Shown here in pieces: positions 1,669 through 39,289 of a stretch of 52,359 bases of DNA. Position 1 is the stretch's first letter. Each line of letters begins with the position of its first letter. Both the position numbers and the translations under genes were made by a program. The notes beneath the pieces were generated by a model. That model saw only the letters and a program-made list of their open reading frames with translations. It ran no database searches and had not been told where the DNA came from. Source of the DNA: a bacterium (GTDB taxonomy: Bacteria > Krumholzibacteriota > Krumholzibacteriia > LZORAL124-64-63); assembly GCA_018829565.1 (NCBI GenBank), contig JAHJTW010000022.1, forward strand, positions 1-52,359, in the 5' to 3' direction.

Positions 1669-1684
1669 CCGCGATCGGGTGTCT

Positions 1685-5002: not shown

Positions 5003-5005
5003 GGT

Positions 5006-10166: not shown

Positions 10167-10215
10167 CGAAAGCCGAGGTCGCCGGCACCCGCGGCTGATA
10201 GCCCCGGAAGTACCT
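10167..10215 (-). other. Candidate lambda-like cos site (cosQ-cosN-like)
   Basis: Minus strand AGGTACTTCC...TGCCGGCGACCTCGGCTTTCG, compared with recalled lambda GGGTCCTTTCC...GGGCGGCGACCTCGCGGGTTTTCG; lies upstream of the MTase-terS-terL operon. Confidence 0.6.
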
Positions 10216-11994: not shown

Positions 11995-12065
11995 TGATCC
12001 CACTCCTTGTGGGGATAGTGGTTCGAATCAAGAGGCTGCCGTGCTCGGATAATGGACGGCCGGGC

Positions 12066-12983: not shown

Positions 12984-13013
12984 GGTGGCGGCCCTTTCTC
13001 GTCGCGGACGGTC

Positions 13014-13352: not shown

Positions 13353-13371
13353 GACTGCTCTCCTTCATGGC

Positions 13372-16300: not shown

Positions 16301-16470
16301 GCGAGGCCCTCGGTCACCGTGAAGACCTGGACGAGGTTGGGCGAGACGTCCGGGAAGGCGTCGACCGGCAGGCGGGTGTAGCCGGCGTAGCCGGCGCCCA
16401 TCACGATCAGCGCGATGATGAGCACCAACAGGCGGTTCTTGAGGCCGAATTCGATCATTCGTTCGAGCAT
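13372..16470 (-). CDS. czcA: CusA/CzcA heavy-metal efflux RND permease
   Basis: 1032 aa; LPVDAFPDV, APEEIE..VT.PVE, NLMSLGGLAIAIGMMVDG..V.VEN, RLRPVLMTA, GSEVQRPLATVVVGG. Confidence 0.96.
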   Translation of the reverse strand: MLERMIEFGLKNRLLVLIIALIVMGAGYAGYTRLPVDAFPDVSPNLVQVFTVTEGLAPEEIEKYVTFPVEAAMTGLPGTAKVRSVSNFGLSVVNVYFRDDVDIYFARQLVGERLQEAREQIPEGFGDPQMGPISTGMGLVLFYYLEDTTGEYSLEDLRTIQDWLIKFHLQTVPGVTEVLGIGGFEKQYQIRIRPEQLLRYDVTLDDVIACVRSNNLNVGAQFIEKNSEEFIVRSVGLATGMEDLSSIVVKTVDGTSIFLSDLAEIGSGGAIRRGLQTRNGTGEVVSGQVVKLFGANSSTVIGRVESKLEEINKILPDGVRIVPYYEQKSLVEAAVKTVINALLQGVILVTIVLLVFMGGLRPSIVVALSLPFSVLFAFLLMERFGVSANLMSLGGLAIAIGMMVDGTIVMVENIDRRLRIAPPDMTRLRTISLACAEVGRPILFAITIIILVFVPLFTLQGVEGKTFRPLAYTVTMAMLGSLIFALLLAPTLSSLLMRVRRRDDSDGDGEALVVRWLLKPYRPVVQFFVRRSWAAIAIAVVLMVAGAAVVPRLGSEFTPKLREGTIVARLTMAPSISLTESQRTAQIVERRLMAIPEVREVVTRIGRGEVGAHTDPINSAEMYVILRPESEWRVAGGQEAIEDVIRDEVGNVPGVLVNLTQPIEMTVDELLEGVRAELAVKIFGDDLDVLKERAAEIAAVVGSVPGAADVQVDQVSGAPQLLLRIDRKAIARYGINVDEVQGVIRAAVGGEVAGQIYEGIRRFDILVRFVPEARQTAESIGHILITAPDGARVPLDQLASIEEIVGPRQITREDNQRFISVQCNVVDRDIGSFVADAQDAIDASVELPPGYLVTWGGQFRLQQEANRRFAVVIPATLLLVFLLLFGNFGSIRNSILILLNIPLALVGGVVALWLTGQNLSVPASVGFIALFGIALENGMVLVTYLNQLLRDGLPVAEASIQGACQRLRPVLMTAITTALGLFPLLFSHGTGSEVQRPLATVVVGGLVTSTILTLLVIPAFYKWFAVKVEHEV

Positions 16471-16484
16471 GGCGTCATCTCCAA

Positions 16485-17471
16485 TCAGTGCGCGTGACCG
16501 CCGCCGAAGGATCCCTTGCCGAGTTCCGCCTTGAGCGTGAACCCACCCTGGGATACGTAGTTTTCACCGGCTGCGAGGCCCGAGACGATCTCGAGCGTGT
16601 TCTCATCCGACCGTCCGACGGTCACGGGTCTGGGCATGAAGCCCTCCGGGGTCTGAACGAAGACGACGTCCTGATCTTCGAAGTGCTGTAGCGCCGTCCG
16701 CGGGATGGCGACGGGCACGACGAAGCTTTCGAGGAGGATTCGGGCCGTGATGAACGTGCCGGGACGCCAAGTGCCTCCCGGATTGGGCAGAATGACCCTC
16801 GCCAAGGCGGTTCTGGTTTCCTCGTCGATGACAGGAGCGACATAGGAGATCGCGCCAGTCACGGCCGGGTGGGCGTGTCCCCCGGAGATCTGGACATCCT
16901 GGCCGACTGCCACTGTGCTGATGTCCCGCTGATAGACCGTGATGTCCGCCCAGACGGAGCTGAGATCAGCGACGACGAAGGCGGCATGCTCCCGCGAGAT
17001 CGCCTCGCCAAGCGTAATGTGCTTGGCGATGACCGTGCCGGCGATGAGGGTCTTGACCTCGTAGGGAGACAGACTCTCGTCGCTTTCGATGACGGCGAGA
17101 ACCTGACCAGCCGCGACTTTGTCGCCGACTTGAGCACGCACGTCGGTCACGATGCCGGAAAAGCGTGGGACGATGTGGGCGAGCATGTTGTCGTTGGTCT
17201 GGATCTCACCGGGTAGGTCGACGCTGCTCGTGAGGGTGGCGTTGCCGGCTTCGGCGACGACGATGCCGAATTCACGCATCTCTTCGGCGCTGAGACTCAC
17301 GATCTCCTCGTGTCCTTCTTCGTCGTGCCCCTGTTCGTCGCCGTGGGCCTCGTGACCCGGTTCCTGCGCCAGAGCGGACAGTTGCGGCATCGCCAGGGAG
17401 AGGGCCAGCAGAACAAGTGCGGCCTGATTCACGAACCTGCGTTCTAGGATGGGAAAGCTCGTCGGTTTCAT
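16485..17471 (-). CDS. czcB: RND membrane fusion (periplasmic adaptor) protein
   Basis: Signal region, His-rich HEAHGDEQGHDEEGH, barrel-sandwich hybrid segment, DEETRT..AR..LPN..G.WRPG.F. Confidence 0.92.
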   Translation of the reverse strand: MKPTSFPILERRFVNQAALVLLALSLAMPQLSALAQEPGHEAHGDEQGHDEEGHEEIVSLSAEEMREFGIVVAEAGNATLTSSVDLPGEIQTNDNMLAHIVPRFSGIVTDVRAQVGDKVAAGQVLAVIESDESLSPYEVKTLIAGTVIAKHITLGEAISREHAAFVVADLSSVWADITVYQRDISTVAVGQDVQISGGHAHPAVTGAISYVAPVIDEETRTALARVILPNPGGTWRPGTFITARILLESFVVPVAIPRTALQHFEDQDVVFVQTPEGFMPRPVTVGRSDENTLEIVSGLAAGENYVSQGGFTLKAELGKGSFGGGHAH

Positions 17472-17472
17472 G

Positions 17473-18807
17473 TTACGGACGCTCCTGGTTGTTCTCGACC
17501 TGACTCAGAGGCCCGGCGACGACGCGCTCGAGCTCGGCGAGGGCAATGTGGTAGCTGGCGAGGGACGCGATATGACGCTCCCGCAGATCGAGATAGGTCG
17601 TGCGGACAGCTAAAACATCGGTGAAGTTGAAGAGGCCTTTCAGGTAGGCACTCTCGGCGGTCGCCATGGCTTCCTCGGCGGCCGGTAGGATTTCTTCTCT
17701 GAGCGTGGTTGCGGCCTTGAAGGCGGCAGAGAGGTCAGCGTACGCCGATGCCAGCGCCGCCTGCGCGGTACTGGTTGCTGCCAGACGTTCCTTCTCGACC
17801 TTGGCCAGTTCGAGAGCGGCGGCCTGGACGTTCCCCTGATTCCGGTTGGCAACCGGCAGCGGAATCGCGATTCCGGCCACGAAGGCGTTGTCTCCGGATT
17901 CCTCAAGACGCCTGAATCCGCCAGAGGCGACGAGGTCGATCTTCCCCAGGGAACGCTCCAGATTCAGGGATGCCTCGCGCAGGGATTGCTCGGTCGCCCA
18001 GCGTGCGATGTCGGGGTTCGTTGTCAGGCGTTGCTCCAACATTGACGCCGTCGGGGGCGGTGCGACCTGTTCGAGGTCGCCCACGGCGCGGCCGTATTTC
18101 GGCTGGTCGGAACCCCATGTCGTCGCCAACCGGACCCGGGCGGCAGTCAGTGCGAGTGCCACGGTTTCGCGGTCCATTTCCGCGGTGGCCAGGGCGATCC
18201 GGGCACGCGTCCGTTCGATCGGCGAAGCTGCTCCGGCCTCGACACGCCGGCCGACGGCGACGAGGTCCTGCTTGGCAGTCTCGATCAGGTCATCCGCGAG
18301 CGCGATCCGCAGTTGAGCGGCGACTACCTCGACGAAGGCCCGTGACACATCGCTGAGGACCTCAAGACGGACAGCTTCGTAGTCCCAGGTCGCCAGTTCG
18401 CGTTCGAAGCGGGCGACTTCTCGACGATTGGACCTCTTGCCGCCAAGCTCGAACAGCTGGGCCACCGAAAGGGTGAGTTCGGAACCGCCGAAGCCCGACA
18501 GGTCACCGGATCCCGCGAAGTTCTCCACTTCGAAAGCGAGTTCCGGGTTGGGGCGCAAGGCGGCCTGGAGAGTGCGCGCATCCCGAATCCTGCGTTCGAA
18601 ATCGTAAACCGCCAGGCGAGGGCTACGGGTCAAGGCCAGCGCACCGGCCTGAACCGCGGTGATATCCTCGCCGTCCGTAATCTCCGGGACGGGGACAGGG
18701 TGAATGGCGGTGGTGTCGGGTGGCGAGGAATCGGCGAACACCGGCGTGACCAGCAATGTCACGATCGCCAACGCTTGCCCGAGGCGAAAGCGCCCAAGCA
18801 GTTTCAT
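17473..18807 (-). CDS. czcC: TolC-like outer membrane efflux protein
   Basis: Signal peptide, PNPEL..E.EN, ELGGKR..R, IPLPV.NRNQG.., AY..G....DVL. Confidence 0.92.
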   Translation of the reverse strand: MKLLGRFRLGQALAIVTLLVTPVFADSSPPDTTAIHPVPVPEITDGEDITAVQAGALALTRSPRLAVYDFERRIRDARTLQAALRPNPELAFEVENFAGSGDLSGFGGSELTLSVAQLFELGGKRSNRREVARFERELATWDYEAVRLEVLSDVSRAFVEVVAAQLRIALADDLIETAKQDLVAVGRRVEAGAASPIERTRARIALATAEMDRETVALALTAARVRLATTWGSDQPKYGRAVGDLEQVAPPPTASMLEQRLTTNPDIARWATEQSLREASLNLERSLGKIDLVASGGFRRLEESGDNAFVAGIAIPLPVANRNQGNVQAAALELAKVEKERLAATSTAQAALASAYADLSAAFKAATTLREEILPAAEEAMATAESAYLKGLFNFTDVLAVRTTYLDLRERHIASLASYHIALAELERVVAGPLSQVENNQERP

Positions 18808-18900
18808 GGTTTGAATCCTTTTCCGAGATCAGCGCAGCCTAAAGACGTGGCACGACGAATCGGCCCGACGAATCATCCAGGGTTGTCTTCAGCGGTGAGG

Positions 18901-19251
18901 CTAGCAGCGGAGAGGCGGAAAGCCGGAGGGCAGGGGCAGCGGAAGCGAGACGCACGGGTCAGCCACAAAGGGCGCAGCGTCACCAGGCGTCGAGGCGATT
19001 CCGCCGAATTCGACGAGAGCGTGGACGCTGGCATCTATGTCCAAAGACAAATCACCTTTGCACCGGCTGTCGGGCAGGGGGACCACGGTGATGTTGCAGG
19101 GGTCACTCGAACAATGAACTTCGTGTTCGCAGGGTGTCTCTGGACAGGAAGGGCAGAAATGGTCCAGAGCGCCGGCAAGGCATGCCGTCGGCGCCAGGAG
19201 GAGCGACCAGAGAGTCGCAATCAGAACTGTTTTCATAATGCCCATAGGCAA
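18901..19251 (-). CDS. Small exported Cys/His-rich protein, CzcI/DUF2946-like
   Basis: Signal-like N-terminus, HFCPSCPETPCEHEVHC..C motif, Pro-rich C-terminus; first gene upstream of czcC. Confidence 0.6.
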   Translation of the reverse strand: MPMGIMKTVLIATLWSLLLAPTACLAGALDHFCPSCPETPCEHEVHCSSDPCNITVVPLPDSRCKGDLSLDIDASVHALVEFGGIASTPGDAAPFVADPCVSLPLPLPSGFPPLRC

Positions 19252-19350
19252 TCAAGATACCTTCTGTCTTATAATTCGCAAGCTCGTCTTTCCGAACAGT
19301 TACGGCCGCTTGGACATCGCCGGGCAATATTAGTTCCCAATCTCCATTGA

Positions 19351-27004: not shown

Positions 27005-29566
27005 TCACGTCCCCAGGGCCGAGCGGACCGCCCGGCGGTTCTTGGCCATGGCCTTGACCAGGATGCGCTGGCCGGCGGGGCTTTCGAGGTGGCGCAGGAT
27101 GAGCCCTTCCTCCAGGCCGATCAGGACCTGGCTGTCCTTGGGGGCCTGCGGGTCCGCGGGGGCGGCGGGCGCATCGACCAGACCGCCCTCGGCGAACCGA
27201 GGCACGGGGGATTCGACCAGGATCGGGGTGGAGACCAAGGCCTGGGCTCCGCGGCGGTTCAGTTCGTCGAGGTGGCGCAGGACACCGGGTTCGCGGACCA
27301 CCGCGGCCCGCACCAGGTACTCGCCGCGGGAGAACCAGGCGAGGTTGGAGTCAGACGTGCCGGTGCCGATCCCGCCAAGGACGCCGCCGGTGGCTTTCTT
27401 CTCCGCACCCCCGACCTGACCGCCGCTGCCGAACACCCCGGCGATCTTCTTGATGATCGCGGTGGCCAGAAGCTGGGCCGCCATGCGCTTCAGGTCGGCG
27501 ATGATCGAAAGAGCCAGGTTGCGGAAGGCGTCGCCCAGGGACTTCGCGCCGGTGATCCCGGTATCGAAGAACTCGGTCAGGGCGTCGCGCCCGCTGTCCA
27601 GGGCGGTTTTACCGAAGGCAGCGAACGACGCGCGAGCGCCCTCGACGGCATATCCGAGGTCGCGCACCGCTTCAGTGAACCCGCGGGCCTGGGCGATCCG
27701 CTCGGGATCGCCTGTGGCCCATGCCGCCTGCTCGAGCGCCGTAGCCAGGCTCTGCAGAAGGGTCAGGCGCTCGGATTCGATGGCCAGGATCTGCTGCTCG
27801 CCCTCGACCTGGGACAGCAGGCCCGCTGAGACCCGGGCCTCGATCTCGGCACGGGTGGCGTCCAGTTCCGCGAGCGCGGCTTCGGCCTGGCGCTTGATCT
27901 CGTCGAAGTTGGCCCCGGACTCCATCGAACTGCGCAACCGAGCCAAGGTGGCCTCGCGCTCAGCATCGGATGCACCCTGCTTCTTGAGCAGCAGATCGGC
28001 CCGGCGGATCTCCTCGTCGATCCCCAACAGAGCGGCCTCGTGACGGCGGCCCTGGGCTTCAAGGAGGGTCTTCTCCAGGGCGAGACGCTCCTGGGCGAGC
28101 TTCTGGACGGCGTCGCGCTCCTCGGATAGCAGGGCTGCGATGCGCTCCTCCTGGGTCGCGCGGGCCTTGGTCAGCTCGGCGTCGATCTTCCCTTGTTCCT
28201 GCAGACGCCTGCTCGGGTCGACCTCGGCGTCGAGCAAGGCGCGCTTCTGCTCGAGGACCTCGAGCTCCTTGGCGAACTCCTCCTCGGCCGCCCGGCGTCG
28301 GTCCTCGTAGTAGGCGCGGACGTCCTTCAGTCCCTCGTCAAAGGCGCGCTTCTCCGCTGCGTTGCGCAGAGCCCCCATCGAGCGGACCAGCGCCAACTCG
28401 CGATCGAGGGTCATCTGCATGGCCTGAGCGCGCTTGGCCGCCAAGGCGGCCGGGTCCTCGGAGTAGTCCTCCGCAGGGGCTTCTTCTCGTGCGGTGGGTT
28501 CGGTCGGCGTGGAGATGGTCAGCTCGAACCGGGCCTTCAGCCGCTCGAACAGCGCGTTCTGCTCGGCGCTGATCGCTTCGCCTGCGGTCTTCAGGTAGGT
28601 CTTGGCCTCGTCGAGGTTGCCATGCAGCAGAGCCCAGACCGCCCGCACGCTCGAATCGATCCGCATCATCACGAACGAGAGCGCCGTGCCCACCACGTCG
28701 AACGCCGACGAGACGACCGCGACGATGAACTTCATCACGAGCCCGATGCCCTGGCCGAACTTCTCCCACGCCTCGGTGGTCTGCTTCAGGTCGCCGCTCA
28801 TGATCTGCAGCGCCTGGGACAGCTGCGGCACGAGGCCGGCGGCCAACCGAGTGCCGAGGCCTTCGCTCTGGGCCTTCAGGAGCTCGAAGTCGTCGTTCAT
28901 CTGCCGGGCCGATTCGGCCAGCCGGGTGTCGATCAGGACGCCCAGTTCGCGGGCCCGCTCGATGACCCCACCGAGGCCTTCGTCCGCCAGGGCGTTCATC
29001 GTGGGGATGAGGTTCGCGCCGGCCCGCCCGAAGATGTCCATGGCCGTCTTGGTCTTCTGGATCGGCGAGGGCATGGCGGTGATCCGCTGCGCTAGAAGCT
29101 CGAAGATCTCGACCGAGTCCTTGCCCTTCAAGTCATCGAGAGTCAGCCCGAGGTCGCGAAAGGTGGCGACGGCCTTGGGGTTCCCCTCGGCCACGTCGCC
29201 GATGAACTTGTTCTGCTTGGCCAGGGCCGCGCCCATCTCCCCGAGGCTGGAGGCCGACGTGCGGGCCAGAAGGTGCAGGGCGGACAGGTTCTCGGTCGAG
29301 GCGCCGACCTTCTGGCCCAGCTTCTGGATCTGGTCCGCGGCGTTGACCGAAGACTGGATCCACTGCTGGAACTGGCGCACCCCGAGGGCGACCCCAAGGC
29401 CACCCAGTAGCGAGGACGTCGACCCTAGGACCCGGTTCAGGCCAGAGAACCCCCGCGCCTGCTTCGCCGAGGCCTTCTCGCCTTCGGCCTGAACCTTCTT
29501 GAGGGCGGCCACGACCTCGGCCACACCTTCGGCCGATAGCCGGACTCGCACATCAGGGGTGGCCAT
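27005..29566 (-). CDS. Tail tape measure protein
   Basis: 853 aa, Ala/Leu/Glu-rich and helical, after the chaperones; C-terminal ATGG...GTGTSDS..AWFS.GEY.VRA. Confidence 0.92.
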   Translation of the reverse strand: MATPDVRVRLSAEGVAEVVAALKKVQAEGEKASAKQARGFSGLNRVLGSTSSLLGGLGVALGVRQFQQWIQSSVNAADQIQKLGQKVGASTENLSALHLLARTSASSLGEMGAALAKQNKFIGDVAEGNPKAVATFRDLGLTLDDLKGKDSVEIFELLAQRITAMPSPIQKTKTAMDIFGRAGANLIPTMNALADEGLGGVIERARELGVLIDTRLAESARQMNDDFELLKAQSEGLGTRLAAGLVPQLSQALQIMSGDLKQTTEAWEKFGQGIGLVMKFIVAVVSSAFDVVGTALSFVMMRIDSSVRAVWALLHGNLDEAKTYLKTAGEAISAEQNALFERLKARFELTISTPTEPTAREEAPAEDYSEDPAALAAKRAQAMQMTLDRELALVRSMGALRNAAEKRAFDEGLKDVRAYYEDRRRAAEEEFAKELEVLEQKRALLDAEVDPSRRLQEQGKIDAELTKARATQEERIAALLSEERDAVQKLAQERLALEKTLLEAQGRRHEAALLGIDEEIRRADLLLKKQGASDAEREATLARLRSSMESGANFDEIKRQAEAALAELDATRAEIEARVSAGLLSQVEGEQQILAIESERLTLLQSLATALEQAAWATGDPERIAQARGFTEAVRDLGYAVEGARASFAAFGKTALDSGRDALTEFFDTGITGAKSLGDAFRNLALSIIADLKRMAAQLLATAIIKKIAGVFGSGGQVGGAEKKATGGVLGGIGTGTSDSNLAWFSRGEYLVRAAVVREPGVLRHLDELNRRGAQALVSTPILVESPVPRFAEGGLVDAPAAPADPQAPKDSQVLIGLEEGLILRHLESPAGQRILVKAMAKNRRAVRSALGT

Positions 29567-29903
29567 CGGTGGACCGTCCTCTCAGGATATCGGGCACCGC
29601 GGGCGGTCTCGGCCGCGATCCCTTGGCGCTGTGCGGGGCCAGGACGCACCAGCAGAGGAACCGGTGGCGATAGTCCTCGAGCGCCTGCTCTCTCATCAGC
29701 CGGCGGTAGGAGGCGAGGGCGACCCGGAGCGGCCAGCGGACGATCCGCTCGGCGCAGTCGTGGTCCCCTGCGGCGAGTTCGCGGACGAGCTCGGTCCAGG
29801 GGCCGTACCGGCCCGGGGCTTCTGCTTGCTCTCGGGTTCCGGGATCGCCTCGGTGGAGGACGTCGTCGAAGTCCACAAAGAGACGATCCCGCTCTCGAAA
29901 AAA
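29553..29903 (-). CDS. Tail assembly chaperone T segment, expressed as a G-T fusion by -1 frameshift
   Basis: The -1 frame continues FFRERDRL...ELAAGD...WPLR.AL..Y from slippery T_TTT_TTC (29897-29903) to a stop near the tape measure start. Confidence 0.75.
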   Translation of the reverse strand, partial: FFRERDRLFVDFDDVLHRGDPGTREQAEAPGRYGPWTELVRELAAGDHDCAERIVRWPLRVALASYRRLMREQALEDYRHRFLCWCVLAPHSAKGSRPRPPAVPDILRGRSTDGHP

Positions 29904-30265
29904 GAGACCAGCAGCGACAGGACCAGGCCGCGCACCTCCGCCTTGTCCTTGGGGTCCCGCAGCTGCCCGAGAAAACGCGCGGTCTCCTGACCCACCTCCG
30001 GGGTCCAGACCTCCCCAGGGTCCCGGTCCTGGGGTGCGATGTCCTCCGGGATCAGGAGGCACCCGAGGAGGTCCAGGATCACGCCGCTCTCGACCGTCAC
30101 TTCGAGCAGCCGCCGGGCGAACGCTTCGGGGCTCTCGCCAGGCTGCATGACCACCTCATCGATCCTGGCCCGCCCCACCAGGGACAGGAACCGGAAGTCC
30201 TGCTCCACGGTGGATTCGCGCAGCGGCAGGAACGTGCGGCCGCCGATCGTGTGCTTGTCGCTCAT
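29696..30265 (-). CDS. Tail assembly chaperone (gpG-like)
   Basis: ATG 30265 (TGATG overlap); lies between the major tail and tape measure genes; contains the slippery heptamer. Confidence 0.8.
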   Translation of the reverse strand: MSDKHTIGGRTFLPLRESTVEQDFRFLSLVGRARIDEVVMQPGESPEAFARRLLEVTVESGVILDLLGCLLIPEDIAPQDRDPGEVWTPEVGQETARFLGQLRDPKDKAEVRGLVLSLLVSFFESGIVSLWTSTTSSTEAIPEPESKQKPRAGTAPGPSSSANSPQGTTTAPSGSSAGRSGSPSPPTAG

Positions 30266-31032
30266 CACGCGATCCTGATCAGCCGGTAGTGCGGCTCGTT
30301 GGGGTGGTTGGCGGCATCGGACTCGATGTCTCCGGTCATGGTGAAGCTCGCGTACTCGTCCGAGATGAACCCGATGGCGCCGTCGGCTCGCATGGACGCC
30401 CGCCAGATCTCGCACTCGTACTTGGGGCCGCGGGCGGGGTCGCCGATGAACCGCAGGTACCCCTTGACCGAGGTCTGGTTCATGCCGCGCACGGTCGGAA
30501 GCGCGATGGTGCCATAGGTGTAGTCCACCTCGATGTCCGACAGGTCGGTGATCGCGCCACCCTCGACGATGTAGATGCGGCCGGTCGTGGCATCGACCTT
30601 GTAGTCGTCGTCCACGGTGTAGGTCGGGGTGCCGCCGGTGCCGGTGACGGTGACCAGGCTCACCTGACGCATCGCGAGCGCGTAGTACCGGCCCTGCAAG
30701 ACGCCGGCGATCTCCTCGGCGGTGACGGTCGAGCCGGTCTGGGCCAGCGTCGCTGTGTCGCCGAACAGCGCCATGGCGAGGTTCTCCTTGGAGAACTCGT
30801 CGCCCACGATCCGGATCGCGAGCGTGGTGCGCAGCACGTCCGAGGCGATCAGGTCGGCCGACCGATCGGCGCTCGAGTACTTCTTGATGTCCTCGCTGGT
30901 GGGCGTGATCTCGAACGTCGGGCAGTTGCCCAGGAACAGCTCGCCGGTGCGCACGCCGCCCGAGTCGAACCGGTCGAAGTAGATCTTGCCCCTGCCGAGC
31001 AGGATGTTGTTGCCGTTGACGACCTCGGGCAT
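30265..31032 (-). CDS. Major tail (tube) protein
   Basis: LGRGKIYFDR, FLGNC..FEITP, LRFIGDPA.GP, F.MTG; canonical position. Confidence 0.85.
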   Translation of the reverse strand: MPEVVNGNNILLGRGKIYFDRFDSGGVRTGELFLGNCPTFEITPTSEDIKKYSSADRSADLIASDVLRTTLAIRIVGDEFSKENLAMALFGDTATLAQTGSTVTAEEIAGVLQGRYYALAMRQVSLVTVTGTGGTPTYTVDDDYKVDATTGRIYIVEGGAITDLSDIEVDYTYGTIALPTVRGMNQTSVKGYLRFIGDPARGPKYECEIWRASMRADGAIGFISDEYASFTMTGDIESDAANHPNEPHYRLIRIA

Positions 31033-31045
31033 GGCTTTCTCCCTC

Positions 31046-31516
31046 TTAGGTCAGGGTCTCCGCGTCATCGGCGCGGGACTGGTAATCGATCCGGAACGTC
31101 ATGGTGGCGCGGCAGAACGATGTCTCGGCCTGCTCGTACTCGAACTTGGTGCCGATCTCGTCGGCGGGGCCATTCGCGAAGCCACCGAACGTGCCGGCTG
31201 CCGCCAGCGCGGTCGTGGCGAAGGCCAGGATCGGATCGGCCGCCTTGTCGGGTTCCTCACCTGCTCCGGCCTTGGTCAGGACCTCGACGCTCACCAGCAC
31301 CGACCGCCGCACGATGGGCCCGCGGCTGGCCGTGCCGGTCTTGGCTTCCCGCATCGTCTCGACCGTCTCGGCCCCCTGGTAGACCGTCAGCGCGGGCAAC
31401 TGGTCTGAGCCGGGCGAGTCCAGGCGCGTCCGCACCGGGGCGGGGACGCCCACGGGCGCGTCGGTGGCCAGAGCCAGGACGGCGGCCGCGACGATCTGCT
31501 CACGGATCGTGCTCAT
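31046..31516 (-). CDS. Tail terminator (gpU-like)
   Basis: MSTIREQIVAA..., LPALTVY, ...F.IDY; directly upstream of the tail tube gene. Confidence 0.7.
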   Translation of the reverse strand: MSTIREQIVAAAVLALATDAPVGVPAPVRTRLDSPGSDQLPALTVYQGAETVETMREAKTGTASRGPIVRRSVLVSVEVLTKAGAGEEPDKAADPILAFATTALAAAGTFGGFANGPADEIGTKFEYEQAETSFCRATMTFRIDYQSRADDAETLT

Positions 31517-31818
31517 GGCGTCCTCAGCGCGACTCGGACCATGGCCCCGTCTCCGTAGGGCAGGACCTTCAGAACGGTGTAGGCCGTGCCGCCGACTGTG
31601 ATCGCGGCCCCTGACTGCAGTCCCGGCAGCACCCCGCTCTGGACGTGGACGATCTCATCGGCGGCCACGACCGCGGGCATCTCACCGCCCAGGATCTCGA
31701 CGGCCTCGCGGTCGAGCAGCCCGAAGACTGTGACGTCGCCGAGGGTGACCTCGACCACGCCACCGGCTTCAGCCAGGTCCGCGAGCATCGCCGCGATGTC
31801 GAAGCCGCCGAGGGACAT
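31513..31818 (-). CDS. Head-tail joining protein (gpFII-like)
   Basis: Small beta-rich protein ending G..ITVGGT.YTV..V.P.GDG...V.L. Confidence 0.7.
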   Translation of the reverse strand: MSLGGFDIAAMLADLAEAGGVVEVTLGDVTVFGLLDREAVEILGGEMPAVVAADEIVHVQSGVLPGLQSGAAITVGGTAYTVLKVLPYGDGAMVRVALRTP

Positions 31819-31821
31819 GGT

Positions 31822-32211
31822 TCAGCTCGCCTTCGTGATCCCGACGAACTCCACGCCGAAGTCGAACGACGGCGTGGTGCCGGCGATGGTGCCGATCACC
31901 CGCAGGTATCGCTTCAGGTCCGAGACGTTCAGCTTCATGACCTTCACGCCGGCGGTCTCGGCCGCGTCGGTGACCTGGGAGAACGTGCCGCTGGTGACAT
32001 CCTCGTAGGTCGAGTCGTCGTCCGAGTGCTGCAGCTTCACGTCCAGGGTGGGGCTGGTGCCGGTGCCGGCCGAGGCGTTCAGCAGCACCAGGGCCACGCC
32101 CTCGTACTCGAGCACGTCGATGCCGGTCCCGGTCAGGGTCGAGGTCCGGCTGGCCGCCGGGGCCAGTTCGACGCCGGTCGCCTGGGCCAGGGCGTTCAGT
32201 AGGTGGGTCAT
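31822..32211 (-). CDS. Head decoration/cement protein (Bbp16-like)
   Basis: Start re-called at ATG 32211; TG.GID, TLDVKLQHSDD.STY.DV, KRYLRV. Confidence 0.7.
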   Translation of the reverse strand: MTHLLNALAQATGVELAPAASRTSTLTGTGIDVLEYEGVALVLLNASAGTGTSPTLDVKLQHSDDDSTYEDVTSGTFSQVTDAAETAGVKVMKLNVSDLKRYLRVIGTIAGTTPSFDFGVEFVGITKAS

Positions 32212-32215
32212 GCGG

Positions 32216-32521
32216 TTACCTCCCGCCGGCGCGCGGCCGGCCTTTGCGCCCCTGAGGCGCCAGGGTGTCGGGGTCCCGGTCTTCGGTGGCCGGGTCCCCA
32301 TGGCTGATGGTGGCGGGCCCGGAGGCCGCGGGAGCCTCCGGACCCGCCGCGGGCACGGACGGGATGACGCGGGCGTAGCCCATCCGGACCTTCTTGCGGG
32401 CGTCCGCGATCGACAGGTCCTTCGGAGCCACCAGGATCTGGCCGGGCAGGACGTCGTTGCCTTCGCCTCCCAGGCAGTGACCCGTCGTGACCTCGATGGT
32501 GAGCGTGCCTTGCTCCGTCAT
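32216..32521 (-). CDS. Small capsid-adjacent protein
   Basis: Start re-called at ATG 32521; short globular domain followed by a Pro/Ala-rich tail, as often seen after a major capsid gene. Confidence 0.6.
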   Translation of the reverse strand: MTEQGTLTIEVTTGHCLGGEGNDVLPGQILVAPKDLSIADARKKVRMGYARVIPSVPAAGPEAPAASGPATISHGDPATEDRDPDTLAPQGRKGRPRAGGR

Positions 32522-32544
32522 GCGTTCTATCCCTTCGTGCCCGG

Positions 32545-34527
32545 TTACGACAGCGTCGCGCCGGTGCCCTTGACGAACGACTCGCCACGCCGGACGGCGG
32601 TGTCGGCCATCGAGTAGCTGGTGATCAGGATCTGGCCGCGGGCGGCCTTGGTGACGACGTCGACTACGATCTCGAGGTCGTTGCCCCACATGCCCACCAG
32701 CAGGTCGTTCCAGTTCCCGAAGACCAGGCCGTGCTCATTGCTGCCGGCTCCCAGCGTCTTGGAGATCTGGTTCGTGGTACGGGCGGGGTAGCCGCCGAGC
32801 TCGCCCTCGCGGTAGGTGCCCGCCCACAGGAAGACCGGGTAGCCGCTGACCAGGGGCGTGCGCTTGAGCACGCCGGCCATCAGCGGGGTGGTCATCCAGG
32901 ACAGGGCCCCCAGGTCGGCGTTCTTGTCCGCGACCAGGGCGGGCATCGTGGTGATGTCCGTCAGGTCGGGCACGCCGCCCACGGCGTGGGACTGCACGTC
33001 GGCCGCGCCGTAGATGCCCACGGGCTGCTTGTCGGTGCCCTTGCCGTGGAGCGCGCCGAGATCCAGGGCCAGGCCGTGTCCGGTCGCCAGGTCGCTGCGG
33101 ATGTCGGCCTCGACGTCGATCGAGGACATCACCAAGAGCTGCCGGGGGATCTGCACCTGGCCGATCAGGGTCTTGGGCGATAGGGACACGTAGCCGTAAG
33201 CGGGCTCGGACCCGGGAGCATCGCTCGGGGGGTTCTCCTCCATCCAGGACACCGTCGGAGCGCCGGTCTTCTTGTTGAAGTACACGACGCCCTGCAGGCC
33301 CGGATAGAGCTTCGCGCCAGCGACCAGCACCAGGGCGCGGTTACGCAGCAGGTCGATCATGTCGGGCATGATCTGCTGGCCGACCAGGGTTGCCCCGCCC
33401 GAGGGCTGGGTGGTGCCCAGCACGCGCTGCTGGTCGTCGTCGCTCAGACGCCACGGCACGAGCACCCCGCCGTGGTCCGCGCCGGTGCGGTGCTTCGTGA
33501 GCTCCTCGTGGACCTCGGCCTCGAGGCCGTCGTACCTGGCGCGCTTGCCATCCATCAGTTCGGCCTGCATGCGGATCGCGCGGTGGATGGAGTAGCGCTT
33601 CTTGTCCCGGGCCGGCATCGCGGCCAGGGCCTCGGCCGAGGGCTGCGCCGGGCCATGGGTGCGGACGGCCTTGAGGATCTCGCGCGAGACCTGGTCGGGG
33701 CTGAGGCCCTGCCTGATCCAGCCGGCGGCCTTGTCGGTCACGCCGTGGGCCTGGGCCATGTCCATGATCTCGGCCGCTTCGGCGCCGCGATCGCGGGTCT
33801 CGGTCACCTTGGGTGCCGGCGCAGACGCCGCCGGCCCGACCGGGGTCTCGTTGCCCTGCGCGGGCGCGCCCTGCGCGGCGGGCTGGGGGGTTCCTGCATC
33901 GACACTCATGGTTCGTTCTCCTTCGGAAGCGGGCTCTTCGATCGTGAACTCGACCAAGTCGGCCTCGGGCACATCACGGGTGCGTCCGAAGCCGACCTTG
34001 TGGTCAGCGGGAATGGGTTCGGTGGACACCTCGTAGGGCATCCAGCGGCAGCGGTAGGTCGCAAGACCGGTCTTCTTGTCCTTGGAGACCATGTCCATCG
34101 ACAGAACCTGATAGCCGACGGAGACGGTCTTGATGTGCCCCTCGCGGAGCATCGTCTCCTGCTCCTGGCCCAGCGGGATGGACGAGAAACTCGCCATGCC
34201 CCGCAGGCGACCGCGCTTCTCGTCGAGCTCGATGTCGTTCACCGAGCCGAAGTGCAGAAGGCGCTGGTGGGACTTGATCAGCGGCAGGCCGTTCTTCGCC
34301 CTGGTGAGGTCCACGTCGCCTGAGACGTGGGACAGGACCTCGTCGTACTCCTCCCAGGTGTCCCAGGAGTAGCGGCGGACGGGAGCCTCGCTGGAGAAGG
34401 ACACCGGGTAGAGGCGGATCTGGCCCTCGCCTTGGTCGGCGCGGGTCTCGACTTCGACCTCGAAGTCCCGGTACTGGATGCGCGGCACCTTCACGGTTCG
34501 CGTCTTGATGGCAGTCGGTGTGTCCAT
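32545..34527 (-). CDS. Prohead protease (HK97/U35-type) fused to HK97-fold major capsid protein
   Basis: N-terminal VSFSSE.PV.R..EVLSH..VDL.R, VSVGYQV, W.PYEVS..PIPAD..VG.GR; C-terminal GG.LV...., LSPKTL, FGNW.DL..G.W, D.AVRR.ESF. Confidence 0.93.
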   Translation of the reverse strand: MDTPTAIKTRTVKVPRIQYRDFEVEVETRADQGEGQIRLYPVSFSSEAPVRRYSWDTWEEYDEVLSHVSGDVDLTRAKNGLPLIKSHQRLLHFGSVNDIELDEKRGRLRGMASFSSIPLGQEQETMLREGHIKTVSVGYQVLSMDMVSKDKKTGLATYRCRWMPYEVSTEPIPADHKVGFGRTRDVPEADLVEFTIEEPASEGERTMSVDAGTPQPAAQGAPAQGNETPVGPAASAPAPKVTETRDRGAEAAEIMDMAQAHGVTDKAAGWIRQGLSPDQVSREILKAVRTHGPAQPSAEALAAMPARDKKRYSIHRAIRMQAELMDGKRARYDGLEAEVHEELTKHRTGADHGGVLVPWRLSDDDQQRVLGTTQPSGGATLVGQQIMPDMIDLLRNRALVLVAGAKLYPGLQGVVYFNKKTGAPTVSWMEENPPSDAPGSEPAYGYVSLSPKTLIGQVQIPRQLLVMSSIDVEADIRSDLATGHGLALDLGALHGKGTDKQPVGIYGAADVQSHAVGGVPDLTDITTMPALVADKNADLGALSWMTTPLMAGVLKRTPLVSGYPVFLWAGTYREGELGGYPARTTNQISKTLGAGSNEHGLVFGNWNDLLVGMWGNDLEIVVDVVTKAARGQILITSYSMADTAVRRGESFVKGTGATLS

Positions 34528-34556
34528 GCACCCAGTAGTGATTCATCCGCGAAAGG

Positions 34557-34589
34557 CCGACCAATCTAAATGTCATTTAGATTGGTCGG
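34557..34589. repeat. 33-bp palindrome (16-bp perfect arms, 1-nt centre) between divergent head genes
   Basis: CCGACCAATCTAAATG-T-CATTTAGATTGGTCGG. Confidence 0.95.
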
Positions 34590-34617
34590 GTCCTGAGCGC
34601 GGTGTCACCGTGGGCGC

Positions 34618-35175
34618 ATGGCACAGGAACTCACAAACCTCCCCGATCAGTTCGCCGCCGGCACGACCGTCAGCTACCGCAGGCGGTTGACGGACTTTCC
34701 GGCATCTGCCGGCTGGACACTCCGGCTCCATCTGGCCGGCGCGAGCGTGCTCGCCAAGACCGCGGCCGCCGATGGCGACGACTTCCTGGTCACCATCGAG
34801 GCTTCCGATACCGAGGGCGACTTCACAGCTGGCCTATACAAATGGGTCGAGCGGGTCAGCAGCGCGGGCGGAGAGGTCTACGAGGTAGACCGCGGCGCCA
34901 TCACGGTGCTGCCCAACCTGGCCGAGGCCTCCGAAGGCAGCGAGCAGGAGTGGATCGAGCGGGCGGTCACGATGCTGCGGGCCCACATCGAGGGCCGGCT
35001 GCCCGCGGGGATGGAGAGTTACCAGATCGCCGGCCGCGTCGTCGCCAAGATGCCGATCAAGGAGGCGATGAGCCTCCTGGCAAGCCTCGAATCCCGTCTC
35101 GCTGGCCTCAAAAACCCCGGGGCCTTCACGCGACCGGTGCTCGTGTCGTTCACCAAGCCAGGGTTCGATCGATGA
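34618..35175 (+). CDS. Head completion/adaptor protein with a gpW-like C-terminus
   Basis: Directly upstream of the portal; ESYQIAGR..KMP..E...L pattern. Confidence 0.65.
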   Translation: MAQELTNLPDQFAAGTTVSYRRRLTDFPASAGWTLRLHLAGASVLAKTAAADGDDFLVTIEASDTEGDFTAGLYKWVERVSSAGGEVYEVDRGAITVLPNLAEASEGSEQEWIERAVTMLRAHIEGRLPAGMESYQIAGRVVAKMPIKEAMSLLASLESRLAGLKNPGAFTRPVLVSFTKPGFDR

Positions 35176-36692
35176 AGCGACCGCTGCACAAGCGCCTTGG
35201 TCGCGCATTTCGGTCAGCCTTGCGGGAGTTGCGCGGTCAGCGCGGCGTATTCGACGGGGCGGGAGTCCACCGCCTGCTCCTGGACTGGATCGCCCAGACC
35301 CGGTCCGCGGACGAGGAAGTCCGCGGCGACATCCGCATGCTGCGGGCCCGCGCCCGCGAACTCGGCCGCAACAACAGCTACGTCAAACGCTACTTCCGTC
35401 TGCTGGTGACCAACGTCATCGGACCTATGGGGATCAAGCTCCAGGCCCAGGTCTGGGCCGGCGACCAGCCCGACTCGAAGGCCAACGCCGCCATCGAAGA
35501 GGCGTGGAACGCCTGGGCCAACGCGCCGGTGACGGTCGACGGCCGGCTCACCTTGCGCCGCTTCGAGAAGCTGATCCTCAAGACCGTGGCTTGCGATGGC
35601 GAGGCCTTTGTCCGCCTCTGGCGTGGGTTCGAGGGCAATGCCCACGGTTTGGCCCTGCAGGCGATCGACGCCGACCTGATCGACGAGACCTTCAATCGCC
35701 CTCGTCGCGGCACCCAGAACGAGATCCGCATGGGCGTGGAGATCGACGCCATCGGGCGGCCGGTCGGCTATTGGATCTGGGACTCGGTCGGTACCGACCT
35801 GATGCGGGAGCGGTACTTCATCCCGGCCGCGGAGATGCTCCACCTCTACGATCCCGACCGCGTGAACCAGACCAGGGGCGTCACATGGGTCCACTCGGTC
35901 ATGGTCCCGGCTCACATGCTCAACGCCTACGAAGAGTCGGAGGCCGTCGCCGCTCGGATCGGCGCCTCGAAGATGGGGCTGTTCGAGAAGCGAGCCGACT
36001 CCCTGGCCGGCGACCTGGCCAGCGATCCTCGGCCTGCCACCATGGAGGCCAACCCGGGGACGTTCGAGATCGTCCCTGATGGCTACGAGTTCAAGGCGTG
36101 GGAACCGGATCATCCCACGGCGCAGTTCCCGGCATTCATCAAGCAGATGCTCCGCAAGATCGCCTCTGGGTTCAGCGTCTTCTACAACGTGCTCGCCAAC
36201 GACGCCGAGGGCGTCAGCTATTCCACCATGCGCAGCTTCGCGCTAGTCGAACGAGACGACTGGCGCTCCATCCAGCAGGACTTCATCGACATGTGGCGGC
36301 GACCGCTGTATGCGGCCTGGCTCGGCATGGCGTTGCTCACGGGCAGCCTGAAGCTCTCCTCCCGCGATCCCTCCCGCTACATGGCCGTCCGGCATCGTCC
36401 TCGTGGCTGGCAGTGGATCGACCCCGAGAAGGAAGCCAAGGCCGCGGTGCTCTCGATCCAGAACGGTCTGGGCACCAGGACGGGATTCCTGGCTGAAAAG
36501 GGTGAGGACATCGAGGACGTCTTCGCCGAACTGGCGCGCGAGCAGGCGCTGGCCAAGGAGTACGGCCTGTCGATTTTCGGGGAGCCGGTACCGGCGGAGG
36601 AACCCAAGGAAGAGCAGCCCAAGGACTCCGAGGATCCGGAAGAAGAGAAGGACGAGGATCAGGCCGAAGTCGAGGACGAGGTGAATGCGTAG
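35172..36692 (+). CDS. Portal protein, lambda family
   Basis: ATG 35172 (ATGA overlap); LRARAR.L.RNN, DGEAFVR, LQ.IDAD, GVE.D.IGRPV.YW, RGV, SYS..R, WIDPEKE. Confidence 0.95.
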   Translation: MKRPLHKRLGRAFRSALRELRGQRGVFDGAGVHRLLLDWIAQTRSADEEVRGDIRMLRARARELGRNNSYVKRYFRLLVTNVIGPMGIKLQAQVWAGDQPDSKANAAIEEAWNAWANAPVTVDGRLTLRRFEKLILKTVACDGEAFVRLWRGFEGNAHGLALQAIDADLIDETFNRPRRGTQNEIRMGVEIDAIGRPVGYWIWDSVGTDLMRERYFIPAAEMLHLYDPDRVNQTRGVTWVHSVMVPAHMLNAYEESEAVAARIGASKMGLFEKRADSLAGDLASDPRPATMEANPGTFEIVPDGYEFKAWEPDHPTAQFPAFIKQMLRKIASGFSVFYNVLANDAEGVSYSTMRSFALVERDDWRSIQQDFIDMWRRPLYAAWLGMALLTGSLKLSSRDPSRYMAVRHRPRGWQWIDPEKEAKAAVLSIQNGLGTRTGFLAEKGEDIEDVFAELAREQALAKEYGLSIFGEPVPAEEPKEEQPKDSEDPEEEKDEDQAEVEDEVNA

Positions 36693-36762
36693 GGAGTGCT
36701 TCGCCGAAGCTCCGCGGCCTGACAGGTGCCCCAGACGAGGGGCGGAACGGAGAGGTTGGAAC

Positions 36763-37140
36763 GTGAGAACGAAGATCATCTGCTTGGTGCTGCTGGTCGT
36801 GGCCGCGGCATGGCTTCCTCTGCTGGGCCTGGCCGCACAGGACGGTGCGGTCGCCGAAGCCACGGGCTGGGTGCCATTCTACGGTACTGGCCCGGTTGGG
36901 TCGAAGCAGGCGCACATCCTCGACATGTACGCGTTGCCTGACCTGGGGACGGTCACCATGTCGTTCTGGGTCTACGACGACGCGGCGCATACCTGGTCAC
37001 GGCTCAAACCGAAGGCAGCGCTCGGAGACTCGGTCTTCACCCTGAGAGAGGGCCTGCCTGTGCGCTTCATCTTCGAGCCGAACGCTCCGGACGCAGCCTT
37101 TCTCTCGGGCGATGGCCGTGCTGACATGATGTGGGAGTAG
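36763..37140 (+). CDS. Hypothetical exported protein
   Basis: GTG 36763 after GGAGAGG; basic N-terminus and hydrophobic stretch (signal-peptide-like). Confidence 0.6.
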   Translation: MRTKIICLVLLVVAAAWLPLLGLAAQDGAVAEATGWVPFYGTGPVGSKQAHILDMYALPDLGTVTMSFWVYDDAAHTWSRLKPKAALGDSVFTLREGLPVRFIFEPNAPDAAFLSGDGRADMMWE

Positions 37141-37146
37141 GCGGTC

Positions 37147-37644
37147 ATGAGGACGCGGATTCTCATGACGGTCATCCTCATCTTGGTCGCGGAGGCCGTG
37201 CCCACGACGGTGTCTGCTCAGTACGGCGGTTCGGTGCACAACGGCGGCTGGGCCAACGGGACGGGTGTGCTTCTGCCGCCGCGTTTGGCGACGATTGCGC
37301 CAGACCCGATCCTCCTGGCCCTCTTGCCTCAGACGTCGTACACGGCGGGTGGTTCGAATGCCTTTGCCTACCTGTACCTGAATGCCCCGTTGTCCGAGGC
37401 CAGGGCGAGGATTCGGGTGGTCCGTCTCAGCGATTCGGCGGTCGTTGCGACAAGTGGTTGGACGGGCACGCTGGACAATCGAGTGACCATCGCCGGGTTG
37501 GTGGTCGGGACGACTTACCGCGTTGAGGTGGAACTCCAGGCACTGACTCCGGCGTGGCTGAGCGTGTCGTGGACGACATTGGTCGCTTCGTATGTCCAGC
37601 CGGGCAAGAACGATCCCCCCTTCGACTACGACTTGCAGGGATGA
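37147..37644 (+). CDS. Hypothetical exported protein with an FN3/Ig-like C-terminus
   Basis: Signal peptide MRTRILMTVILILVAEA..VSA; VTIAGLVVGTTYRVEV resembles the FN3 L.PGT.Y motif. Confidence 0.6.
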   Translation: MRTRILMTVILILVAEAVPTTVSAQYGGSVHNGGWANGTGVLLPPRLATIAPDPILLALLPQTSYTAGGSNAFAYLYLNAPLSEARARIRVVRLSDSAVVATSGWTGTLDNRVTIAGLVVGTTYRVEVELQALTPAWLSVSWTTLVASYVQPGKNDPPFDYDLQG

Positions 37645-37654
37645 AAGGCTGTCA

Positions 37655-38014
37655 ATGGAACTGACACTCGAGGTAGCACGCAGCTTGGGACTTGGTGGAC
37701 TCGGACTCATGGCGACAATGCTGGCCGTGAAGCTGGCCATCCAGACCGTCGACCTCGCCCGAAACCAGCTGTGGAGGCGCAACGGCAGCAACGGAACGAA
37801 GGTCGCCTTCGATGAGCTCAAGGTCGTGTGTCCGCTGGCCCCGGGCCGACACTCCCTCGACGACGTCCACGAGGTCCTGATCCAGATCCGAAGCGGGATG
37901 GAACGGCTCAACGAGACCCAGAAGGAGATCGAGACCGACATGAAGGACCGCAGCCAGCGGTTGTGCGACATCCTCGGGGCGCTGCGCCTCGAGCTGGCCC
38001 GAAGGGAGGCCTGA
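37655..38014 (+). CDS. Membrane-anchored coiled-coil protein (possible lysis accessory)
   Basis: Start re-called at ATG 37655; one N-terminal hydrophobic helix and a C-terminal coiled coil; directly before the endolysin. Confidence 0.55.
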   Translation: MELTLEVARSLGLGGLGLMATMLAVKLAIQTVDLARNQLWRRNGSNGTKVAFDELKVVCPLAPGRHSLDDVHEVLIQIRSGMERLNETQKEIETDMKDRSQRLCDILGALRLELARREA

Positions 38015-38015
38015 C

Positions 38016-38510
38016 GTGACCAGCAGAGAGCTCTTCGACCGGGCGATCGAGGTCGTCCTCGAGCATGAGGGGGACACCTACACCGACAACCCTGTCGATC
38101 GGGGTGGACCCACGAAGTTCGGGATCGCCCAGCGTTGGAACCCGGATTTGGACGTGGCGAGCCTCACTCGAGCGCAAGCCGTCGAGGTCTACTGGGAGCG
38201 CTACTGGCGCGGTCATCGATACGAGTTCCTGCCCGAGGCGATCGCCATCAAGGTCTTCGATCTGGCCGTCAACCTCGGCAACAAGACGGCGGTGACGTGC
38301 CTCCAGCGCGCGCTTCAGGCCTGCGGTCTGCGGGTAGTGATCGACGGAATTCTGGGCACCGAGACCTGTGGGGCTGCGGAGCAAGCCGACCAGAAGGCGT
38401 TGATGGCAGCTCTGAGATCCGAGGCCGCGGGCGAGTACCGGCTCCGGGTGGCCCGAAGCGCGGATCAGATCGTGTTCCAGGGCGGGTGGCTGAACCGGGC
38501 TTATGCCTGA
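38016..38510 (+). CDS. Endolysin, glycosyl hydrolase family 108 with a peptidoglycan-binding domain
   Basis: EHEG..Y.DNP.DRGGPTKFGI, Y...YW, FDLAVNLG, LQRAL, DG..G..T, GWLNR. Confidence 0.92.
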   Translation: MTSRELFDRAIEVVLEHEGDTYTDNPVDRGGPTKFGIAQRWNPDLDVASLTRAQAVEVYWERYWRGHRYEFLPEAIAIKVFDLAVNLGNKTAVTCLQRALQACGLRVVIDGILGTETCGAAEQADQKALMAALRSEAAGEYRLRVARSADQIVFQGGWLNRAYA

Positions 38511-38522
38511 GAGGAGAGTGCA

Positions 38523-38924
38523 ATGGTTGGAGAAATCCTGGGCATCCTGGGGAAAGTCGCTGGCGGAGTCGCCGACCGCATCTTCCCGGACCCGGAGCAG
38601 GAACTGAAGCGGATCGAACTGCAGCAGGCGCTGCAGGCGGCCGTCCTGGAGCGGACCTCGGAGATCGAGCGGGCGGCCGCCGAGGTCGTCAAGGCGGAGG
38701 CGCAGGGCCAAAGCTGGCTTCAGCGGACCTGGCGGCCGATCACGATGCTCGTGTTCGTCGCGCTGATCGTGGCCCGCTGGCTGGGGTGGTCGGCCCCGAA
38801 CCTGGGCGAGGCCGAGGTCCTGAAGCTCTGGGACATCGTCGAAATCGGCCTCGGTGGGTACGTGATCGGACGGTCGGCGGAGAAGGTGCTGCCGGGGATC
38901 GTCGGTTCACTCAAGAAGAGCTAA
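38523..38924 (+). CDS. Holin (3TM, gene-transfer-agent-type family)
   Basis: SWLQRTWRP, TM segments, GLGGYVIGRSAEK. Confidence 0.88.
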   Translation: MVGEILGILGKVAGGVADRIFPDPEQELKRIELQQALQAAVLERTSEIERAAAEVVKAEAQGQSWLQRTWRPITMLVFVALIVARWLGWSAPNLGEAEVLKLWDIVEIGLGGYVIGRSAEKVLPGIVGSLKKS

Positions 38925-39073: not shown

Positions 39074-39289
39074 ATGATGGCTGAACCGTCAGGCGATGTT
39101 CTCACGATTGATGAACTCGCCGTATACCTTAAAATTCCGAAGTCAACGCTCTACAAGCTTGTGCGGGAGGGGTCTGTCCCTTGCCAGAAGGTCGGCAAGC
39201 ACTGGCGATTCCACAGGGACGCCATCGATGATTGGTTGAAAGGACGCCCTGCTGTAACGCCAAGCAAGAGGTTAACCGCGCCAGGTTAA
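39074..39289 (+). CDS. Excisionase-like HTH DNA-binding protein (HTH_17)
   Basis: VLTIDELAVYLKIPKSTLYKLVREG.VP.QKVGKHWRF.R.AID.W. Confidence 0.88.
   Translation: MMAEPSGDVLTIDELAVYLKIPKSTLYKLVREGSVPCQKVGKHWRFHRDAIDDWLKGRPAVTPSKRLTAPG

Follow-up and report, generated by a model that had tools for sequence, protein, structure and literature searches.

Divergent phage promoter regions under the control of one regulator are known from phi29, in which the A2c/A2b-A3 region is governed with p4, and activator-dependent late promoters without a -35 element are known from P2 and 186 (Ogr/B) and from Mu (C). In lambda the late operon is transcribed from pR' with Q, in the order lysis-cos-Nu1-A-W-B-C-E-tail. 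Late activators of the RinA/ArpU type have been described in phages of Gram-positive bacteria (PMC3152322, PMC3753634), and in bacteria a symmetric -10 element can make a promoter bidirectional (Warman et al. 2021; summaries in PMC10268837 and PMC12825309), with divergent starts 7-25 bp apart, mostly 18, and overlapping -10 elements (PMC10268837). Here we analyze a perfect 33-bp palindrome in a prophage of the siphovirus type (PHROGs and Pfam searches), where it lies between two divergent sets of virion genes. The window, i.e. the whole stretch of 52,359 nucleotides studied, is the entire contig C162 of a 354-contig metagenome-assembled genome (MAG; 67% GC, 4.39 Mb). From sequence comparison, the palindrome is very probably some kind of cis-regulatory region, promoter or operator, and we consider it reasonably likely that each arm carries the -10 element of a promoter serving the gene on its own side, together with a required phage factor.

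Position and conservation of the palindrome

The palindrome, CCGACCAATCTAAATG-T-CATTTAGATTGGTCGG, has 16-nt arms that are 100% complementary and an unpaired central T at 34573, and its core is AT-rich in a local context of about 65-70% GC. None of the dinucleotide-preserving shuffles of the window yielded a matching palindrome, no other long perfect inverted repeat is present in the window and the copy number in the 4.39-Mb genome is one, which bears out the repeat on which the original prediction was built. The interval given there (34527-34618) corresponds to the whole intergenic gap of 90 bp, within which the palindrome centre is 46 bp from the protease-capsid ATG on the minus strand and 45 bp from the gpW-like ATG on the plus strand. 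The flanking genes are as previously described, except that the "gpW-portal" gene is in fact two genes (34618-35175 and 35172-36692) that overlap in ATGA. The features at the gap are:

34557-34589, no strand: palindrome (16 + T + 16), with conserved core 34560-34586, ACCAATCTAAAT-NTN-ATTTAGATTGGT
32545-34527, minus strand: prohead protease-major capsid fusion, first gene of the leftward unit (PF05065, PF04586, phrog_617)
34618-35175, plus strand: gpW-like head-tail joining protein of 185 aa, first gene of the rightward unit (phrog_5774, E 4e-26)
35172-36692, plus strand: lambda-family portal protein (PF05136, E 3e-85)

Searches of genome and viral collections with the portal and gpW proteins gave about 45 distinct loci, including some on contigs of 0.9-4.7 Mb. 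Conservation, suggested earlier as a check in related phages, was assessed in 31 distinct single-copy relatives with gpW identity down to 74%, and both the palindrome and the gene order are kept among them. The gap is 90 bp long in 31/31 relatives and the distance from the centre to the gpW ATG is always 45 bp. Arm positions 2-13 on each side of the centre show 3 minority bases out of 744, compared with 359 out of 1922 at flank positions 14-44. The conserved part of each arm is its inner 13 nt, and the outer CCG/CGG that extends the repeat to 33 bp is not conserved; this difference between arms and flanks, together with the variable outer triplets, points to ACCAATCTAAAT-NTN-ATTTAGATTGGT as the functional core. 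The central T is invariant in the 31 relatives on the gpW-sense strand while its neighbours vary (GTC, ATC, CTC, ATG and CTA). Such a strand-specific T is unexpected for a purely symmetric site, and it may belong to the spacer of a rightward promoter, as the T at -17/-18.

Further copies or half-sites were sought in the window and in eight genomes, and only one site was found per prophage, so the motif does not define a regulon.

Predicted outward -10 elements and a proposed phage factor

Read outward from the centre, each arm is ATT-TAGATT-GGTCGG, in which TAGATT has the A at position 2 and the T at position 6 of a sigma-70 -10 element (TAnnnT). The promoters upstream of the host tRNA genes are canonical, TTGACA-N17-TAnnnT, and that of a tRNA-Leu gene on contig C161 is TTGACA-N17-TAGATTGGTCG, with the same -10 hexamer and GGTCG as the arms. 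In view of these host promoters, a Bacteroidetes-type -7/-33 promoter was dropped from consideration. TCTAAAT had been pointed out previously as the -10-like element of each arm; the arms are indeed -10-like, but TCTAAAT reads inward and would place the -10 in the far arm, whereas the near-arm TAGATT reads outward and matches the host promoters. The best explanation we can offer is that the palindrome is the core of a late transcription control region whose arms would act as two back-to-back, outward-facing promoters with host-type -10 elements:

34578-34583, plus strand: TAGATT, predicted -10 of the rightward late promoter (gpW, portal, lysis), predicted transcription start near 34590
34563-34568, minus strand: TAGATT, predicted -10 of the leftward late promoter (capsid, tail, packaging), predicted transcription start near 34556

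Transcription would start 7 nt past each hexamer, giving leaders of about 28 nt that are mostly conserved. The leftward promoter would serve the capsid, tail, cargo, cos, ParB-methyltransferase, TerS and TerL, and the rightward promoter gpW, portal and the lysis genes, with the result that all late functions would start from the 90-bp gap. A phage factor, which may be an activator, a repressor or an RNA polymerase-directing protein, would read the arms and switch both promoters together. The leaders, as seen in the alignments, are:

34528-34556, minus strand: leader of the capsid operon, conserved, with a Shine-Dalgarno (SD)-like TGGGTG at -9 to -4 of the ATG
34590-34617, plus strand: leader of the gpW operon, variable over 34590-34600 and followed by conserved GGTGnCACCGTGGGCGC with an SD-like TGGGCG

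TCAC-N2-3-TGGG-N-GC-ATG is common to the two (34528-34556 and 34601-34617), and the capsid leader is much better conserved than the gpW leader (143/961 vs. 216/961 minority bases). The capsid leader of most relatives contains an 8-bp palindrome, GATGCATC, where the window has GATTCATC. Since SD-like TGGG(T/C)G precedes both start codons, the mRNAs are not expected to be leaderless; a leaderless reading of TGnCACCGT before the gpW ATG was rejected on these grounds and because that motif is absent on the capsid side. A sigma-54 reading of TGGCAC-N5-GCGC before the gpW ATG was also discarded: in the window and in many relatives TGTCAC stands in place of TGGCAC, and the predicted start would be intragenic. 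The palindrome is not an intrinsic terminator either, for a scan found none and the two neighbouring genes have their starts, not their ends, at this point.

The few changes within the arms fall mostly at hexamer position 4, which is tolerant in -10 elements. In L040 and L041 one arm reads TAGtTT and the other TAGgTT, and copy A of L083 has TAGcTT in its capsid-facing arm, so that all three alternative bases occur; in L081 there is an A-to-T change just upstream of the right-arm hexamer.

L014 (on the same contig as L078), L077, L082 and L083 amount to natural experiments: cargo of 0.8-2 kb separates the capsid gene from gpW and the palindrome is found twice, giving eight copies. The capsid-gpW gap is thus a recurrent cargo slot, occupied by an SRA-HNH endonuclease gene in L014 and by genes of unknown function in the other three:

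L014 4543-5414; L077 1386-2960; L082 2028-2905; L083 1093-2945: cargo slot, flanked by two palindrome copies

In these loci the proximal, operon-facing arm has TAnnnT in 8/8 copies, and the distal, cargo-facing arm in 3/8, the others being TGGATT (twice), TGGATG, TAGATG and one that is lost. All four surviving altered distal arms are changed at A-11 or T-7, bases that are indispensable to a -10 element. Both copies of L014 and copy A of L077 keep the 45/46-bp spacing to the structural operon, the capsid-side copy of L082 sits further from the start codon, and the gpW-side copy of L077 has no central T, with the gpW, portal and capsid genes intact. In the more distant L065-67 (gpW 48% identical) the half-sites are 7 bp closer to each other and the outward TAGATT/TAGACT are kept, the hexamer lying 36 nt from the gpW ATG vs. 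34 nt in the window. That the near arm is always kept in the two-copy relatives is, besides the match to host promoters, our reason to prefer the outward TAGATT to the inward TCTAAAT. Taken with L065-67, these loci fit directional elements that would each serve the gene on their own side, and they are a poor fit for a hairpin or for a site that must act as a symmetric unit.

A hairpin (of DNA or RNA) or a cruciform, for example serving as an origin of replication, as a target for a nuclease or for recombination or as a leader-RNA structure, would account for the folding of the single strand at -20 kcal/mol (z = -7.5), and recurrent insertion of cargo exactly at the palindrome, with duplication, could reflect breakage of a cruciform. 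None of the changes seen in the relatives restores pairing, however: those of L040/L041 give an A-G mismatch and that of L081 a T-T mismatch, the innermost pair is broken in several relatives (centres ATC, CTC, ATG and CTA), and the two-copy loci show decay of a single arm, the other being retained. With transcription starting inside or beyond the arms, neither mRNA would hold the full hairpin. We therefore regard such a structure as very improbable.

Several observations weigh against the two-promoter explanation. A sigma-70 consensus scan of the gap came back empty; neither arm has a -35 partner, the -35 position lying in the variable flank (GGCCGA, GCCCGA and others), and the TG at -15/-14 of an extended -10 is absent. 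The 12-13 invariant bases of each arm exceed the needs of a -10 hexamer. In the two-copy loci the distal arms are mostly still conserved, and the contrast between proximal and distal arms (one-sided Fisher p = 0.013) is affected by shared ancestry and rests on about four independent events, not all of the cargo events being independent, as L077 and L082 share part of their inner-flank sequence. Furthermore, Pfam scans of small phage ORFs (open reading frames), including the first early genes of the relative G009, gave no clear regulator, and a motif present once per prophage offers no regulon to back one. It is from the lack of a -35 or extended -10 element combined with 12-13 invariant nucleotides per arm that we infer a phage-encoded factor.

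In three more distant lineages the same centre, 44-47 bp from each ATG, is occupied by other dyads:

L016: ATTCCAGT-GTT-ACTGGAAT
L059: CCATTGCACAA-T-TTGTGCAATGG
L064: CAATTGAAAT-TAT-ATTTGAATTG

The dyads of L016 and L059 lack an outward TAnnnT in the equivalent register, a further point against the explanation given above, and a host -10 element alone can therefore not explain the symmetry in all lineages. The centre of the L064 dyad holds TATAAT/TATATT, and with its central AATT the L059 dyad might form the bidirectional arrangement with 18-bp spacing known from PMC10268837. That symmetry is kept while the sequence changes suggests a phage-encoded recogniser in addition to the host RNA polymerase.

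One possible alternative, to which we give clearly less credence than to paired promoters with a phage factor, is that a single dimeric regulator encoded by the phage, either a lysogen repressor covering both -10 elements or a late activator, has the entire palindrome as its operator, and that the likeness to -10 elements is secondary. In its favour, each arm of this perfect dyad has 12-13 invariant bases, and the dyad is conserved as a unit, the arms being nearly invariant in the 31 relatives; sequence-unrelated dyads at one centre in L016, L059 and L064 are what operator and protein specificities changing together would leave, and the absence of a -35 element is usual for activator-dependent promoters. 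A small helix-turn-helix (HTH) gene, 10942-11250, is moreover the least conserved gene of its own block (68% over 73 aa) in a genome with the L016-type dyad. On the other hand, a dimer operator does not predict the asymmetry of proximal and distal arms; two half-sites at a fixed spacing are not required, as five of the eight distal arms have decayed and the half-sites of L065-67 have shifted by 7 bp; L040 and L041 changed the same symmetric position in both arms to different bases; there is a single site per prophage; and the Pfam scans revealed no cognate protein. This alternative overlaps with paired promoters under a phage factor rather than excluding them. All of the comparative evidence is in keeping with the main reading of the original prediction, namely a late promoter that is symmetric and bidirectional or a site for a dimeric regulator, of which an activator site would be one possible form.

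As to which protein might read the arms, the product of 10942-11250 is weakly Cro-like (E 0.043) and that of 4742-5002 resembles ribbon-helix-helix (RHH) proteins by eye, with no Pfam hit; both are weak candidates. The first early genes of G009 gave no family hits, and the contigs bearing the other dyads do not include the early region. The HTH protein encoded at 39074-39289 (HTH_17), which had been put forward along with 10942-11250, is a poor candidate because it lies outside the region shared with related prophages, homology ending just past the holin gene at about 38900-38920.

Prophage layout and the split head module

The late genes all depart from the one 90-bp gap and are co-directional within each of the two directions, the leftward unit extending from the gap to about 4742 in the ORF map. 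On the minus strand the capsid gene is followed by a Bbp16-like gene, head closure and tail terminator genes, and then the tail. The terminase genes, TerS and TerL, are on the strand opposite to gpW and portal, at a distance of 26-28 kb. The remaining features are:

36685-38924, plus strand: rest of the rightward unit, comprising three small ORFs of unknown function, endolysin and holin
38016-38510, plus strand: endolysin
38523-38924, plus strand: holin
30265-31032, minus strand: major tail protein
27005-29566, minus strand: tape measure
to about 19351, minus strand: distal tail genes
about 11389-19350, minus strand: cation-efflux cargo region
10280-11250, minus strand: two small ORFs
10172-10193, minus strand: probable cos, reading CGCGGGTGCCGGCGACCTCGGC, 24 nt upstream of the ParB-methyltransferase ATG
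8655-10151, minus strand: ParB-methyltransferase
8088-8651, minus strand: TerS
6254-8104, minus strand: GpA-type TerL
to 4742, minus strand: small ORFs beyond TerL
28-3841, plus strand: helicase and primase-polymerase

The split, divergent head module is a natural arrangement that is stably kept rather than an artefact of assembly. More than 35 independent assemblies (SPAdes and MEGAHIT) share it, every sufficiently long locus is collinear with 29169-38920 of the window across the palindrome, and the TerL-portal distance is 28-31 kb in three other genomes, matching the window. Among these assemblies there is no inverted isomer and no contig end at the palindrome, so that the readings as a chimeric junction or an inversion site, both raised in the original prediction, do not hold. 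A search with blastn of the region against a phage collection gave no match, and tblastn with the capsid found only relatives of about 30% identity, all with the collinear portal-capsid order and uninformative for the gap.

These data also bear on whether the palindrome is a DNA processing or rearrangement site, that is a cos or pac site, a protelomerase telRL site, an invertase site or the junction of an assembly chimera. The unusual distance and opposite orientation of the terminase and portal genes might suggest this, as might the presence of the linear-plasmid prophage VP882 among the distant relatives of the capsid. With one layout across all assemblies, a conserved TerL-portal distance, a single copy per prophage, two copies only 840 bp apart tolerated in L014 and a prophage intact within a 4.7-Mb contig, we consider a processing site extremely unlikely. 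A site-specific inversion site of the hix/gix type is contradicted by the one copy per prophage and the single orientation in the assemblies. The telRL-like alternative proposed earlier fails on the odd centre, on the integration of prophages in contigs of 0.9-4.7 Mb and on the absence of a ResT/TelK protelomerase domain (PF16684) in four genomes (G000, G001, G004 and G009). A cos reading of the palindrome was likewise rejected, as it lies 26 kb from TerS and a conserved GGGTGCCGGCGACCTCGG is found beside the packaging genes at 10172-10193. The latter has one and the same minus-strand sequence in the window, G004, G001 and G009, with divergent sequence upstream of it; we take it to resemble lambda cosN, and it is the probable cos of this GpA-terminase phage.

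Other features of the prophage and its relatives were noted. The cation-efflux cargo within the late unit consists of two CDF genes, a P-II-like gene and a gene for a 1032-aa protein (phrog_7301); it is missing from the provirus G009 and differs in G001, and thus represents a variable cargo region. Downstream of TerL there is a SpoVG-like ORF on the plus strand (4366-4683; Pfam E 9e-4, under the curated cut-off) and, on the minus strand (4742-5257), the RHH-like ORF of 86 aa together with a Cys-rich ORF of 83 aa; all three possibly encode small nucleic-acid-binding proteins. No att repeats paired with the nearby tRNA-Asn were found.

The 4.7-Mb contig G001:C1 has two closely related TerL genes 68 kb apart (379327-381174 and 447903-449750) and an additional palindrome copy 2.4 Mb away, at 2786782, which indicates that this host carries several related prophages. 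Near-identical prophages (80-99% portal identity; L003-L083) occur in MAGs of widely differing labels (Krumholzibacteriia, Fibrobacteraceae, Eisenbacteria, Verrucomicrobia, Planctomycetota and Woesearchaeota), and several of these labels or bins are probably wrong. The IMG/VR record of L035 (G016, 21.8 kb) is classed as having an "inverted terminal repeat", a 99-bp exact inverted copy at its ends that looks like an assembly artefact unconnected to the palindrome.

Comparison with described systems

The locus provides a handle on late-gene control in a widespread prophage family of uncultured high-GC bacteria. If the near-arm model is true, single changes at 34579 or 34567 (A-11) would each silence one half of virion production. 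The gap is also marked as a slot for repeated cargo insertion, namely of the SRA-HNH nuclease and several unknown genes. A more far-reaching proposal, which we think rather doubtful, is that the 27-bp dyad is the single site of a phage factor that licenses RNA polymerase in both directions, a one-site master switch for late genes, and that cargo may in addition enter preferentially at the palindrome, whose duplication would leave each operon with its promoter.

Judged by the usual definitions, the palindrome is not a full sigma-70 promoter because it has no -35 element, and it would not pass as a strict dimer operator because one half-site seems to be dispensable and the spacing is variable. 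In common with the lambda late operon, the prophage has a GpA-type terminase, a lambda-family portal, a gpW-like protein and a lambda-like cos candidate, and one long late transcript would cross cos. In contrast to lambda, gpW, portal and the lysis genes run in the opposite direction to capsid, tail and terminase, so that late transcription would diverge from one gap, and no Q-like antiterminator was recognised here.

Bacterial bidirectional promoters of the type described by Warman et al. share with the palindrome a pseudo-symmetric, AT-rich sequence, which here too would engage RNA polymerase both ways and give divergent mRNAs. Here, however, the symmetry is perfect, over 27 bp, and the two best hexamers are separate, 9 bp apart, with predicted starts about 34 bp apart and thus outside the range of 7-25 bp. 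A weaker central pair within the palindrome (AAATnT/nAnATT) would give an 18-bp start spacing, and the variant centres of L059 and L064 could fit an 18-21-bp class of this type.

The closest resemblance is to the phi29, P2/186, Mu and RinA/ArpU systems, with which the locus shares a short intergenic region before morphogenesis genes, the lack of a -35 element, a dyad at the promoter and what would be a single late control point. It differs from them in that the dyad covers both -10 regions instead of lying at -35 to -55, and in that the few small proteins scanned included no recognisable homologue of these regulator families, no search having been aimed at them. It also differs in having one site per genome with essential virion genes on both sides, and in the separation of portal and gpW from the terminase genes. 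On present comparison it is most likely a late control region made up of two back-to-back promoters lacking a -35 element, that is, a known kind of element that would call for no new mechanism.

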